In this document: piece after piece, positions 12,451-17,756 of the stretch | Numbering within the stretch: position 1 is the first letter of the stretch | Layout: every line of letters begins with the position of its first letter | Assembly (NCBI GenBank): GCA_964594865.1 | Contig: CAZQMZ010000005.1 | Span: 8,521-72,520 of the forward strand | Source: an uncultured Lachnospiraceae bacterium | Lineage (GTDB): Bacteria; Bacillota; Clostridia; Christensenellales; UBA1242 | DNA length: 64,000 nt | Direction of reading: 5' to 3' | Notes under the pieces: generated by a model | Database searches by the model: none | What the model was told of the DNA's origin: nothing | The model's input: the letters and a program-made list of their open reading frames with translations, nothing else | Program-made: the position numbers and the translations under genes

Positions 12451-13701
12451 TTATGTCTTCACCCTTGCCAAAGTGATGTTGTCTTCTTCTCGATTTTGAA
12501 GTTCTTTGACAGGGTTTGTTTTTGTTTCACATCGATAATCTTCTCCAAAATAGTTGATGTGGTCCACGATAACTTTGTGGCTGGCTTCTTCTTCCGGATT
12601 TTTGATCACTTTGTTTTGATATTTAAAGAAGTTGTCAGCGTCATCAAGGTCGTCAATGTTGACATAACCTTCGCGCTTTGCTGTGCAAGTGACAGTTTTC
12701 TTCAATACTGTTCGAACATACTCTATGTTTGATTGCAGTTTGATAAGCTCTGGAAATTCGCCATTTGGAATGACTTCTTGCCACTCCTTTTTCTCATATT
12801 TCATCAAAAGATCTTTTGCGGAATGAAGATGTGCAATTTCTTGCTCCAAAATCATCTCCCAAATCTTTTTGATGTGTTTGTCACTCTCATCTTGCATCAT
12901 GGAATAATATAGATAGCACTCAATATACTCATGCATAAGGCACATCTCAAACCAACTTGCTGTCGGATCAATCAAACTGCCATACTGCGAAACATGTTGC
13001 TCTTCCACCATGCCAATTTCGGTGTATAATTCTCGACCTTTTTGATTTTTATAAAATGAGCCCAAATTCATATAATAATTCATTGTCTGCTGTTCCGCCG
13101 CTGTGATTATGCTGACTGCACATTTAGTGAAAGGGTCGGATATTTTGTTTGAAATTGGTTCTTTGATTTCGTCATAAGGATGTCGATGATGAGCAATCGT
13201 TGGACGCCCCGGCGTGATTTCTGTGTATCCGCCCACATATTCTTCCGCTTTTGCACCCATATCACTTTCCAACAAATTTGAATAGCGATATAAATGGTCA
13301 AAGTCTTCCAAAAGTGCAAAATCAAGGGCATCCTTGACGTGCTGATCTTTTGTGTGTTGAGCCAAAAATGCCGTCAATTCAACAGCAAGTTGCTCATATC
13401 CAATCGTCGTTTCAAGCAAATTTTCATCGACAGGTTTAAGCCCCGCAATAAGTTTTTGCTGCTGGTGTTCTTGGCGTCTTATCATGGCAATCGACCGCCT
13501 CAAATCGTTGTCAGAAGAATGTCTGTGGAAGGCATGTCCAAACCATACCGCCTCATATTCCGTCCCATTCATCAAAATGCAACGCGTGCGCGTGTATGGG
13601 TTCACTTCGTTTTTGTCATATGGTTTTGGCGCAAGATCTTTCCAACTCATGATACACGCTTCCAATTTTTTTGGTTTTTCCAAAAAAGGATTAAATTTCA
13701 T
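12451..13701 (-). CDS. Conserved double ferritin-like-domain protein
   Basis: Repeated ExxH pairs (EHQQQ, EDFDHL, EEQHVSQY, EIAHL) in helical bundles; GGAGG RBS. Confidence 0.6.
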   Translation of the reverse strand: MKFNPFLEKPKKLEACIMSWKDLAPKPYDKNEVNPYTRTRCILMNGTEYEAVWFGHAFHRHSSDNDLRRSIAMIRRQEHQQQKLIAGLKPVDENLLETTIGYEQLAVELTAFLAQHTKDQHVKDALDFALLEDFDHLYRYSNLLESDMGAKAEEYVGGYTEITPGRPTIAHHRHPYDEIKEPISNKISDPFTKCAVSIITAAEQQTMNYYMNLGSFYKNQKGRELYTEIGMVEEQHVSQYGSLIDPTASWFEMCLMHEYIECYLYYSMMQDESDKHIKKIWEMILEQEIAHLHSAKDLLMKYEKKEWQEVIPNGEFPELIKLQSNIEYVRTVLKKTVTCTAKREGYVNIDDLDDADNFFKYQNKVIKNPEEEASHKVIVDHINYFGEDYRCETKTNPVKELQNREEDNITLARVKT

Positions 13702-13919: not shown

Positions 13920-14007
13920 GGAGAGTTGGCTGAGCGGTCGAAAGCGGCGGTCTTGAAAACCGTTGAGGTGAAAGCCTCCGTGGGTTCGAATCCTACACTC
14001 TCCGCCA
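13920..14007 (+). tRNA. tRNA-Ser (anticodon TGA)
   Basis: GGAGAGTTGGCTGAGCGGTCGAAAGCGGCGGTCTTGAAAACCG...long variable arm...GGGTTCGAATCCT...CTCTCCGCCA; CCA encoded; followed by terminator hairpin ~14017-14049. Confidence 0.97.
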
Positions 14008-14187
14008 ACTTGTACCCAACTGAACACCTTTGTTTAGTTGGGTTTTTTTATGAAAATTAGTAAGACTCCTTATTATCTTTGCCTTTCGCCATGGGTTCAG
14101 CAAAATTCTTGTATGAAGTCAACGGGACAAATTAAATTTCGTTTTGTTTTTGATTTTAGAAATATTGGACCATTATTATAAATTAAG

Positions 14188-14217
14188 TTGACATTTTAAT
14201 TCTTCGTTCATTATAAT
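14188..14217 (+). promoter_or_regulatory. Consensus sigmaA promoter upstream of the Pro-rich small ORF
   Basis: TTGACA (14188-14193), 18 bp, TATAAT (14212-14217). Confidence 0.8.
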
Positions 14218-14264
14218 AGTTTTATGATGACACTTCATTATAACTAAAATTAAAGGAGGTCAAT

Positions 14265-14390
14265 ATGCCAAGACATCCAAAACCAGGTGGTCCAGGACCA
14301 CATCCAATTCCAGGTCCACGTCCTAGAAGAGTGCCTGTTCCACCACCAAAAAGAGCACCTGGCAGAAGAGATACAGGTCCGCCAAAGTGA
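14265..14390 (+). CDS. 41-aa Pro/Arg-rich small protein (not in ORF track)
   Basis: AAAGGAGGT 5 nt before ATG; MPRHPKPGGPGPHPIPGPRPRRVPVPPPKRAPGRRDTGPPK; GC-rich island in AT-rich DNA. Confidence 0.75.
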   Translation: MPRHPKPGGPGPHPIPGPRPRRVPVPPPKRAPGRRDTGPPK

Positions 14391-14452
14391 ACACAACTGA
14401 AAACCACTATTAAAGATATTGTTATTAAAAATGAATTAAAAGAGAGGGGACT

Positions 14453-14983
14453 ATGAAATTTTTGATCGTTTCAGATATTCATGGAAGTGCAAATTCAGCA
14501 AAAATGTTGGTGGAAAAGTTTGAAAAAACAGGCGCGGACAGAATAATTTTGTTGGGTGATTTGCTTTATTCTGGGCCAAGAAACGGCTTGCCTGAAAATT
14601 TCAATCCACAAGAAGTTACAAATATTTTAAATTCACTTGCCGACAAAATTTTGGCGGTTAGAGGTAACTGTGACTCAGAGATTGACCAAGTAGTTTTGAA
14701 TTTTCAGCTTGCAGAAAATATGTATATTGTTGTCGGAGATAAAATTTATTTTTGCACGCACGGACACCACATAAGTCACGAGACGCCGGCAAATTTTGCA
14801 GACGGCATAACGGTTTTGTATGGACACTTTCACGTAACTCGCAAAACCGAAATTTCAGGTGTGACATATTTCAACATTGGAAGCATCACAAAACCAAAAC
14901 ATGATTCAAAAAAGTGTTACGGAATTTTGGATGAAAATGGAATCAAAGTTTTTGACCTTGACGACAATTTGATTTTGGAATAA
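14453..14983 (+). CDS. yfcE: YfcE/MJ0936-family metallophosphoesterase
   Basis: SDIHG, LGDLLYSGPRN, VRGNCDSEID, THGH, GHFH, NIGS. Confidence 0.9.
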   Translation: MKFLIVSDIHGSANSAKMLVEKFEKTGADRIILLGDLLYSGPRNGLPENFNPQEVTNILNSLADKILAVRGNCDSEIDQVVLNFQLAENMYIVVGDKIYFCTHGHHISHETPANFADGITVLYGHFHVTRKTEISGVTYFNIGSITKPKHDSKKCYGILDENGIKVFDLDDNLILE

Positions 14984-15269
14984 TTTTGTTATTTAAACAT
15001 TACTAATTTTTTCAAATTTAATATTCATTTCATTTTCCAATAAGAAATTTTTGCGTATTTACTCAAAATATTTTATTTGCCAAATCGTTTTACATCTCTG
15101 TTGCACCGTCACATCATTTAAAATACGAACTCTGCGAATTTATTTAGAGTTCGTATTTTTTTAGTAAAAATTATTGTAAATCATTATAAAAATCGCCATA
15201 AAAGTGTGCAAATCTGGAAAAATTGTTTTTTTTGTATTGTATTTTGCACAAAATTAGGAATGAGTTGTT

Positions 15270-16526
15270 TTATTCAAAAATCAAAGTATATGTCGCAGTC
15301 AATGTCTTGCCCGAATCGTCAATGGTGAAATAAACTGTCAAAACACCTTCGCTCCCAGCAAACTCTGAGATGTTGGAGAGAGACATTTTGTATGATTTAT
15401 TGCTCCCCGTTGCTGAATACTGACTTCCATCAATTTCAAGTGTGACTTCTGTTATAACCAGTTTAATATCTTTATACGTATCCGACGCTGCAAAGGACAA
15501 CGGAATGTTTGTCATCATACTCATGCTTGTTGGAATTATCAATGTGTTTTCAACTTGTGTGATTGCAGGATATGTTGTCAAGTTCAAATATACATTTCCG
15601 TCAACAATGTCGTCACCTGTCTCTTCATTATCAAAAATTTCGGCGTTTTCATTTTCGTCAGTATTTTGATCATCGTCCGCTAAATCTTCCTCGACATATA
15701 CTTTTTCATTGTCACCTTCTTCATCTGTGTTCTTGTCGTCGTCTTCTGCTGGAAATTCTTCATCATTAGGAACACCCTCATCGTTGTCAGTCTCTACATC
15801 ACCGTTCTTGTCGTTTAAATCACTCTCTTCACCGCCATCGTCTTCGCCAGCATTTTGATTGTCATTCCCTGAATCTTCGTCTTTATTCCCTTCGTCAAAA
15901 TTTTCATTTTCATCGCTCTCGTTATCGTCTGCCTCATCGTCTTTGGATAAATTTTCTTCATTGTTGTTTCCATCATCATCGATGTTCTGACTGTCATCCA
16001 CATCTTCGCTAACTTTTTCATCAGAATTGTCAATATCATTATTATCAATCTCTTCTTCATCACCACTGTCATCTTCGCTGTCTTGGGCACCTTTTTCTTC
16101 GTCTAAATCTTTATTTTCATCTTCTTCTGGAAGGTCCTCATCTAAGATTATCTTTTCAGGATATATCACCGTGACGTTGATGACCACTTCACAATCGTCA
16201 TATCCATCTGCGGTTAAAATAAGTTGGGATGAAATCTCGCCCGTGCGCTCTTCATTCTCCAATGCAGTGATTACCAAAGAATTGTCCACCCCAAGCGAAT
16301 ATTCAAAAATCTTTTCACCAACGACAGCTGTCTCAACAACCATAGATGAAGGACTGGCGTAATAAGTCAAAGTCACACTTTCGCCGGCGGGCAATGTTAC
16401 ATCCGTTGTTGAAACACTGATTGAAGGTTCTTCCCCGTTGTTGCAAGCAGTTAATGCAATGCCTGTTGCAAATATTGCAAGAACAACAAAAATTCCAAAA
16501 AATATCTTTTTTATGTTTGTTTTCAT
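15270..16526 (-). CDS. Lipoprotein with long Asp/Glu/Asn-rich low-complexity linker between two beta-rich domains
   Basis: Signal peptide with LTAC lipobox (Cys28); central DEDSGDEEEIDNND...-type tract; downstream terminator hairpin ~15121-15162. Confidence 0.8.
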   Translation of the reverse strand: MKTNIKKIFFGIFVVLAIFATGIALTACNNGEEPSISVSTTDVTLPAGESVTLTYYASPSSMVVETAVVGEKIFEYSLGVDNSLVITALENEERTGEISSQLILTADGYDDCEVVINVTVIYPEKIILDEDLPEEDENKDLDEEKGAQDSEDDSGDEEEIDNNDIDNSDEKVSEDVDDSQNIDDDGNNNEENLSKDDEADDNESDENENFDEGNKDEDSGNDNQNAGEDDGGEESDLNDKNGDVETDNDEGVPNDEEFPAEDDDKNTDEEGDNEKVYVEEDLADDDQNTDENENAEIFDNEETGDDIVDGNVYLNLTTYPAITQVENTLIIPTSMSMMTNIPLSFAASDTYKDIKLVITEVTLEIDGSQYSATGSNKSYKMSLSNISEFAGSEGVLTVYFTIDDSGKTLTATYTLIFE

Positions 16527-17666
16527 GGCGGTATTTTAACATATATATCAAATATACACAAAGTAAATTTCGACATTATTTACAAATTACTAGAAAAACT
16601 TTGACGAACTGCTGTCATTTTGCTGTCAAACTGACAGCAAAATCTTTTCAACAAAAAATCCTTGCCAAAAAATCTTACAGATTGAGTCTTTTCTATTTAA
16701 CAACAAAACACTCAAGCATTAAGCCGTTGTTTGGAAAAAACATAAAAGTATCGACATGTAGTTGAAGGATGAACTATCATTTTTTTTAATATAAGTATTT
16801 TTCAAGTATAAGTGCTCTGTCGCAATCTTTGAAAAAGTTCTATGTCAATTTACTATTCTTTAATTTTTGTTCAAATTATTGTTTCTTATTTTTAAAGATG
16901 TTTAAGTTATGTTTTAATAACAATAGTGTACAAATTCGCTTACTATATAAATTCGCTAATCTAACTTTAGTATTTATCAAAGTGTTTAATTTTTACTTTT
17001 TCATTTCTATACACGAAAAATTTTTATTAAGTATGTCAAGACTTTAAAGAAAAAATTAAAAGATGTTATAATTCCTTCATAATAAAACATATAAAAAACA
17101 CTGCCAAAATGTCTTGTTTGAAACGACTGCTAGTATGTCTGTTAATTTATGTACCAGTTCCAAACACTTAACTCTTTGATTGCTTAATATAAGCCTTTGT
17201 ATAATTTGATAAATTAAGAAATGAAAAAGATCGACCTTTTGGAAGAGATTTAGAAATTTTTAACTGTTTCGGATATTATGGCAGTTTAGAACTGGTAAAA
17301 TATTTGGCGGATAAGCTAAAAGGCAAATGTAGACAAAATACTTTTATTGACCAATTTACTTTATTTTGGTTTAGAAAACAGTTTAAAAATTTTATACCAA
17401 AGAAATTACAATATTTTAAACTCTTTTACCAACAAAACGTTTTTAAAATATGAACGAAATTTTGAATAAAAACGGTGTTAAAGTCTTTTAAGCTTAACAA
17501 TTGCTTGATTTTGAATGAATTTTGAACTTTGCTGAACTAAAAATAGTCACAAATAAATGTGCCATATAGTGCCACTCCTTATTAACAGCTAAATGATCGA
17601 TTTCAAAAGCATATTTATTAAATCGGTATTGTTAACAACTTTAAGTATTGGTTATTATGCCAGGAT

Positions 17667-17756
17667 TGTTTCACGTGAAACATTTTAAAGCTAATGATAT
17701 AAGTTTGTTTCACGTGAAACATTTTTTATATAAATGGAATTGTTCCATGTGAAACA
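17667..17756. promoter_or_regulatory. parS: Cluster of three parS sites
   Basis: TGTTTCACGTGAAACA at 17667-17682 and 17706-17721; TGTTCCATGTGAAACA at 17741-17756; match the Firmicute parS consensus. Confidence 0.93.

Follow-up and report, generated by a model that had tools for sequence, protein, structure and literature searches.

A species-restricted, proline- and arginine-rich small ORF preceding yfcE in an uncultured Lachnospiraceae bacterium, a candidate polyproline leader cistron

We have shown here that the yfcE gene in the window (the whole 64,000-nucleotide stretch of DNA that was analysed) belongs to an operon that starts at a promoter at 14188, continues through a 41-codon open reading frame (ORF) and yfcE, and ends at a terminator at ~15121-15162. 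The 41-codon ORF is real and species-restricted, has coding-type periodicity and would encode a peptide dominated by proline and arginine. Our preferred reading, held tentatively and at a probability of roughly 40%, is that the ORF is a young, species-specific, cis-acting and slowly translated polyproline leader cistron, the first gene of a pep-yfcE operon. We infer translation of the ORF, ribosome pausing on it and a resulting effect on yfcE. Behind this reading we rank, in descending order of likelihood, a small protein acting in trans, a non-functional ORF, and a peptide resembling the proline-rich antimicrobial peptides (PrAMPs).

The operon and the tRNA gene that precedes it comprise the following features.

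13920-14007, plus strand: tRNA-Ser(UGA), identified by ARAGORN and by Rfam (tRNA, 58 bits)
14014-14050, plus strand: intrinsic terminator of the tRNA gene, a 13-bp stem followed by a T-run
14188-14217, plus strand: sigma-70/sigma-A type promoter, TTGACA-18 nt-TATAAT, matching at 12/12 positions
14252-14260, plus strand: Shine-Dalgarno (SD) sequence AAAGGAGGT, with GGAGG 5 nt 5' of the ATG at 14265; kept in the strain variant
14265-14390, plus strand: 41-codon Pro/Arg/Gly-rich ORF, translation MPRHPKPGGPGPHPIPGPRPRRVPVPPPKRAPGRRDTGPPK
14391-14452, plus strand: AT-rich spacer of 62 nt that holds the yfcE SD GAGAGGGG at ~14441-14448
14453-14983, plus strand: second cistron, a yfcE-type Mn-dependent phosphodiesterase of 176 aa (Pfam Metallophos_2; NCBIfam NF006988 and TIGR00040)
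15121-15162, plus strand: operon-closing intrinsic terminator, a 14-bp stem (15121-15158) of -15.2 kcal/mol followed by a U-run

Promoter, ORF, 62-nt spacer, yfcE and terminator follow one another in sequence and therefore form one transcription unit. Much of this layout had been anticipated by a first-pass annotation, which proposed a perfect TTGACA/TATAAT promoter, a ribosome-binding site and a yfcE gene with no terminator in front of it, and these proposals are all borne out. The promoter boxes (TTGACA at 14188-14193 and TATAAT at 14212-14217) form the sole 12/12 match in the region, their 18-nt spacer is one nucleotide longer than the optimum, and the promoter is identical in four of four strain contigs. 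Transcription would be expected to start at ~14224, and the ORF lies within a 229-nt yfcE leader. A scan of the plus strand from 14218 to 14452 finds no intrinsic terminator, and there is no promoter between the ORF and yfcE. The yfcE product itself scores 191 bits against NF006988 (cut-off 117) and 75 bits against TIGR00040 (cut-off 56). On its upstream side the operon is insulated from tRNA read-through by the terminator at 14014-14050; on its downstream side the terminator has a 10-nt loop, which places it beyond the reach of a consensus terminator scan. A Gly-rich 61-aa ORF on the minus strand (14222-14407) has neither an SD nor a promoter and was rejected, as was a fusion of the 41-codon ORF to yfcE by frameshifting, because the spacer carries an in-frame TAA.

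The flanks of the operon contain several further elements. A gene on the minus strand at 12451-13701 encodes a 416-aa protein that is conserved (53-80% identity) in 26 of the 41 genomes from this genus; its ferritin-like and rubrerythrin Pfam matches are sub-threshold and it falls into no NCBIfam family, and it may represent an uncharacterised di-iron-type family. On the other side, a minus-strand gene at 15270-16526 encodes a 418-aa lipoprotein-like protein whose centre is extremely acidic, rich in D/E/N and contains diverged repeats of ~75-100 nt; neither Pfam nor NCBIfam gives a match for it, and the syntenic loci of relatives lack a homologue. Further along, at 17666-17725, are two perfect 21-nt direct repeats (TTGTTTCACGTGAAACATTTT) that lie 39 nt apart, ~120 nt upstream of a rubrerythrin gene (17844). 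Each repeat includes the palindrome TTTCACGTGAAA, and the pair probably serves as tandem operators bound by a redox or peroxide regulator.

The expression signals and base composition of the ORF can be set against those of the genome as a whole, which is 945 kb (0.94 Mb) in size, 37% GC and 100% complete. Translation follows table 11, and TGA is an ordinary stop codon: table 11 gives 541 ORFs of at least 200 aa and ~77% genome coverage, 214 of these ORFs end in TGA, and an alternative code with TGA read-through was rejected. Perfect TTGACA-N16-18-TATAAT sites number 33 genome-wide compared with 2.1 in block shuffles, and many of them precede rpoB, L21, L32, L34, rubrerythrin and similar genes; a perfect promoter here is therefore usually real. 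Likewise, 130 of 178 GGAGG-N4-9-ATG sites open ORFs of at least 100 aa, while 12 of the 178 open ORFs shorter than 20 aa. The GC contents of the three codon positions of the ORF (GC1/GC2/GC3) are 0.71/0.76/0.12, compared with 0.45/0.33/0.38 for the genes of the genome. The resulting contrast, (GC1+GC2)/2 - GC3, is 0.61, which ranks first among 820 intergenic ORFs of 30-60 codons and is ~5 sd above their distribution (mean -0.04, sd 0.12). Overall, the ORF is 53% GC and strictly 3-periodic, and its intergenic surroundings are 20-25% GC. Synonymous codon choice is similar to that of a proxy set of highly expressed genes (EF-Tu, EF-G, S12, DnaK, GroEL, enolase and GAPDH), with CCA making up 75% of Pro codons in the ORF and 71% in the set, and with Arg encoded in the ORF only by AGA and CGT, which have shares of 44% and 35% in the set; the GGT codons of the ORF likewise agree with the set. 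This is the pattern expected of a translated, native ORF, and on these compositional grounds we consider translation of the ORF likely.

The predicted peptide has a mass of 4.4 kDa and a pI of 12.0, starts with Met-Pro-Arg and ends with DTGPPK. Translation and codon counting confirm the 16 Pro (12 of them encoded by CCA), 7 Arg, 3 Lys and 1 Asp previously reported for its 41 residues, to which can be added 6 Gly; the remaining Pro codons are CCT (3) and CCG (1), Arg is encoded by AGA (6) and CGT (1), and GGT occurs 4 times. The PRPRR and PPP motifs already described are found at residues 18-22 and within VPPPK at residues 25-29, respectively. These are followed by RAPG at residues 30-33 and by GPPK immediately before the stop codon at residues 38-41. 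As stated in the earlier work, the peptide has no signal peptide: it contains no hydrophobic, signal or TM stretch and its GRAVY value is -1.59. A translated product would probably stay in the cytoplasm and lack a stable fold. A role as a spore-surface peptide, which had also been suggested, has no support: signal and homologues are both lacking, and the locus offers no sporulation context. A tandem-repeat origin of the ORF was rejected after TRF found nothing.

The same composition had led to the proposal of a bacterial PrAMP-like peptide, and we find that the likeness is compositional only. The peptide resembles the class I PrAMPs oncocin, pyrrhocoricin, metalnikowin and Bac7 in being cationic, Pro/Arg-rich and unstructured, in falling within their ~20-60 residue range and in having a PRPR element. 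Its 16 Pro, 10 Lys+Arg and single acidic residue in 41 aa, together with a pI of 12, place both charge and length within the PrAMP range, and it has PRPRR and PPP. By analogy with oncocin, Bac7 and apidaecin, such a peptide might bind the 70S exit tunnel and block initiation or elongation, acting either against competitors or as an endogenous inhibitor that throttles the cell's own translation. However, in the core of class I PrAMPs, Pro-Arg repeats surround a (Y/R)(L/R) pair, and this pair stacks in the A-site cleft (PMC4797290). A regular expression for the (Y/R)(L/R)PRPR core, [YR][LR]P[RT]P, has no match in the peptide, whose PRPR element is preceded by P-G rather than by Y-L or R-L. In addition, animals produce the class I PrAMPs, which enter target bacteria through SbmA (PMC4797290). 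These PrAMPs originate as secreted precursors, whereas the peptide would be made in the bacterial cytoplasm and has no export route. It carries no signal or pro-region, and no transporter, exporter, immunity or processing gene is found near the locus, the neighbourhood being one of housekeeping genes (gmk-like, rubrerythrin, class II aaRS and gatCAB) together with the acidic lipoprotein. Class II PrAMPs, of the apidaecin/drosocin type, have a C-terminal release-factor-trapping motif, and apidaecin ends ...HPRL; the DTGPPK terminus of the peptide is not of this PRL type. Nor does the peptide show detectable homology to any PrAMP family or similarity to any PDB chain, and it is an orphan with no evidence of constraint. 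Given that there is no core, no signal and no exporter or immunity gene, and that cytoplasmic synthesis would expose the producer's own ribosomes, we reject membership of the PrAMPs and judge a PrAMP-like activity to be highly improbable.

The peptide is an orphan whose only relative is an allele in the same species. No homologue is present in 81 related genomes, no match is found among 40 further genomes from the genus and order (41 genomes searched), and tblastn and blastn-short detect no paralogue or source fragment in its own genome. Among 5.8 billion clustered proteins there is a single match (P0001), which comes from this locus on contig L017, in a second strain of the species, and an exhaustive HMMER scan of 1.84 billion representatives adds only P0002, a eukaryote-like repeat protein of low complexity. 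Nothing is returned when JGI metagenomes and IMG/VR are scanned with back-translated patterns, and the peptide has no match in Pfam, NCBIfam, PHROGs or the PDB. The description of the peptide gene as unannotated in the first-pass annotation is correct in so far as the product is nameless; the 41-aa product has, though, already been called by the gene callers behind public collections.

The distribution of yfcE provides context for this restriction. The gene is absent from the 40 other genomes of the genus and is thus itself accessory in the genus. Its best species-representative homologues reach only 44% identity; closer homologues, at 82% and 65-67% identity, occur on metagenomic contigs, where their neighbours differ (Tex, ABC transporter, NT5C and GreA). 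A Pro-rich upstream ORF (uORF) precedes none of the yfcE homologues on eight contigs (65-82% identity), where the upstream regions are 19-26% GC, and none is found at 13 more distant species-representative yfcE loci. Since there is no uORF even at the 82% homologue, any regulation of yfcE by the ORF would be a species-level novelty, and the ORF is either younger than the split from the 82% yfcE or has been lost everywhere else. In relatives (loci L060-L070) the gene for the 416-aa neighbour and, often, the tRNA-Ser gene are kept, and the sequence after the tRNA is different in every genome; the ORF therefore sits in a variable region. An integrated island bounded by att repeats of the tRNA 3' end was considered and rejected, as no such direct repeat occurs within 12 kb. 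The contig with the 82% yfcE homologue also codes, at L072:230-613, for a protein with a Spo0A C-terminal domain, which hints that the lineage descends from sporulating Bacillota despite its ~1 Mb genomes.

The variant allele differs from the ORF at 3 of 126 nt, and all three differences are nonsynonymous (P16S, D36H and T37A). Between the same strains yfcE differs at 3 of 531 nt, two of the changes being nonsynonymous, so that divergence is 2.4% for the ORF and 0.56% for yfcE (Fisher p = 0.09). The ORF has 89 nonsynonymous and 34 synonymous sites, for which three nonsynonymous changes out of three have p ~0.38 under neutrality; with two alleles, purifying selection on the peptide is therefore neither supported nor contradicted. 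The three nonsynonymous changes and the faster divergence than yfcE fit a peptide under little or no constraint. The variant allele has the promoter, the SD, the start and stop codons, and the PPP, RAPG and GPP motifs in unaltered form. The conservation of promoter, SD and ORF between strains, with the stalling motifs intact while three other residues have changed, supports the reading of the ORF as a cis-acting leader.

These data on distribution and divergence bear equally on whether the ORF has any function. It could be a young proto-gene or a captured fragment, a recent accident after a tRNA gene that is not under selection and is perhaps transcribed only because yfcE needs a promoter. Its restriction to one species would be expected on this account, as would its position in a region after tRNA-Ser that differs in every relative examined, next to a yfcE gene that is accessory in the genus; moreover, divergence of the ORF equals that of the non-coding DNA on its flanks, and all of its changes are nonsynonymous. 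Against this, a 53% GC, periodic ORF with an ideal SD-ATG arrangement and preferred codons would not easily arise unless selection or a coding origin were involved, and no source sequence is found in its own genome or in any database searched. We consider it doubtful that the ORF is without function.

The coding-type evidence would serve a product that acts in trans as well as one that acts in cis. A highly cationic, cytoplasmic peptide of polyproline-II type, co-expressed with yfcE, could be the functional product, and its target would be RNA, DNA, the ribosome or a partner protein, of which YfcE is one possibility. The ORF has its own strong SD, and 41 codons is long for a leader peptide. 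In addition, CC, GG and CG persist at codon positions 1-2 in the face of AT-biased mutation while position 3 is 88% A/T, suggesting that the amino acid composition is being maintained. This account is weakened by the lack of a homologue anywhere searched and of any family or structure match, by the three out of three nonsynonymous strain differences, one of which loses a proline, and by the fact that no partner or target can be named. A trans-acting small protein ranks second among the readings, and we regard it as unlikely.

The preferred reading, that of a cis-acting leader cistron, draws on what the peptide would demand of the ribosome. The first-pass annotation had already suggested a leader for yfcE that senses EF-P or Pro-tRNA, and several features agree with it: the ORF is in leader position with no intervening promoter or terminator, it encodes VPPPK, RAPG and GPPK, and EF-P is present. 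The efp gene is located at contig C1:206757-206967 and is cut by the contig end, leaving ~70 N-terminal residues that include the KPGKG loop; for this reason an automatic annotation may list EF-P as partial or overlook it. The genome has tRNA-Pro genes with UGG and CGG anticodons. With proline at just 2.5% of the proteome, PPP is found no more than ~9-14 times genome-wide, and the ORF therefore represents an exceptional load on prolyl-bond formation.

The RAPG sequence is of particular relevance to pausing, since it is the arrest core of ApcA, in which the proline occupies the P-site and the glycine the A-site (PMC12992588). RAPP-like motifs are strongly depleted from bacterial proteomes, and recur near the C-termini of small uORF products that regulate diverse downstream genes (PMC12992588). 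In the present genome, ORFs of at least 100 aa contain RAPP once, RAPG once, and RGPP and RAGP not at all; a 147-aa ORF on contig C14, which has RAPP close to its C-terminal end, resembles a spurious antisense ORF. In the peptide, RAPG occupies residues 30-33 of 41, 8 residues before the stop, and is kept in the variant allele. The motif alone is nevertheless insufficient, and RAPG supports arrest only in its ApcA setting, giving none in the context of ApdP (PMC12992588). Given the composition of the peptide (16 Pro, 7 Arg and 6 Gly), an arithmetic estimate of the chance of finding RAPP, RGPP, RAPG or RAGP is ~0.2, and the RAPG may be a chance product of that composition.

The leader proposal is weaker on the means of coupling to yfcE; in RAPP-like arrest peptides, the stalled ribosome melts a structure in which the SD of the downstream gene is sequestered. 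No alternative stem-loops or attenuator coupled to translation of the ORF are found in the leader, and the fold of 14224-14470 is no better than that of shuffled sequences (z = 0.03). Rfam, at E <= 1, reports only tRNA, so that with this fold value a structured RNA or riboswitch in the leader was rejected. Rho-dependent polarity was also considered, and a crude motif search finds no Rho Walker-A motif. The sole candidate coupling structure is a weak 7-bp pairing, predicted from the minimum free energy (MFE) fold, between the last codons of the ORF (14376-14383) and the yfcE SD (14446-14452); its opening energy is 4.2 kcal/mol and it is lost in the strain variant (G14446A). We know of no link between yfcE and proline or translation, and, as noted, uORFs are missing at the yfcE homologues. 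The reading of the ORF as a leader is thus plausible, and fits better than the PrAMP reading, but is incomplete.

In the mechanism that we propose, ribosomes entering the yfcE mRNA at the strong SD would have to form 16 prolyl bonds, including those in VPPPK, RAPG and GPPK, so that how long they take to cross the leader would depend on EF-P and Pro-tRNA(UGG). Slow or paused ribosomes would set yfcE output by protecting the 5' end of the mRNA and by being delivered next to, or unmasking, the yfcE SD 62 nt downstream. A more specific proposal is that a cytoplasmic Pro-rich peptide engages its own ribosomal tunnel, whether as a signal-less RAPG/polyproline arrest chain that senses EF-P/Pro-tRNA for yfcE or as a released PrAMP-like modulator, and that it arose de novo in one species; we judge this composite claim improbable.

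Provided that the ORF is translated and that it tunes yfcE, we would have here a clear-cut case of the very recent, species-level birth of a polyproline leader cistron. It would then offer a natural test, in a reduced genome of 0.94 Mb, of how EF-P-dependent or RAPP-like stalling sequences get recruited. The locus is one orphan small ORF in one species with no measurable selection, and it is not evidence for bacterial PrAMPs.

Among known systems, the mgtL and mgtP leaders of Salmonella mgtA and mgtCBR resemble the ORF in being short, in carrying Pro codons and in lying within the 5' leader of the gene that follows. Their Pro codons include consecutive ones, the speed of their translation depends on Pro-tRNA and EF-P, and they act through alternative stem-loops or attenuators (PMC3641672, PMC6460261), whereas no such structures are predicted in the yfcE leader. 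mgtL and mgtP are also much shorter than the ORF and have no sequence relationship to it, and yfcE is without a known proline or Mg2+ link. The RAPP-like arrest peptides (ApcA with RAPG, ApdA/ApdP with RAPP, and SecM with RAGP) provide a second comparison. Like them, the ORF is a small ORF directly upstream of another gene on one transcript and has its motif near the C-terminus, here exactly RAPG, the weakest, context-dependent form; and RAPP-like motifs are nearly absent from the rest of its own proteome, as they are in bacteria generally (PMC12992588). The known RAPP-like arrest peptides carry an N-terminal signal or TM segment that acts as a monitoring substrate, which the peptide lacks. 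Also unlike them, the ORF does not precede sec or yidC genes, has no homologues, and is not followed by a clear SD-sequestering stem-loop. In a broader sense, the ORF resembles the lineage-specific small ORFs of bacteria, being nameless, confined to one species, under 50 codons in length and placed in a variable region. Most spurious small ORFs lack its strong expression signals and its codon-position contrast, the highest among the intergenic ORFs compared in the genome.
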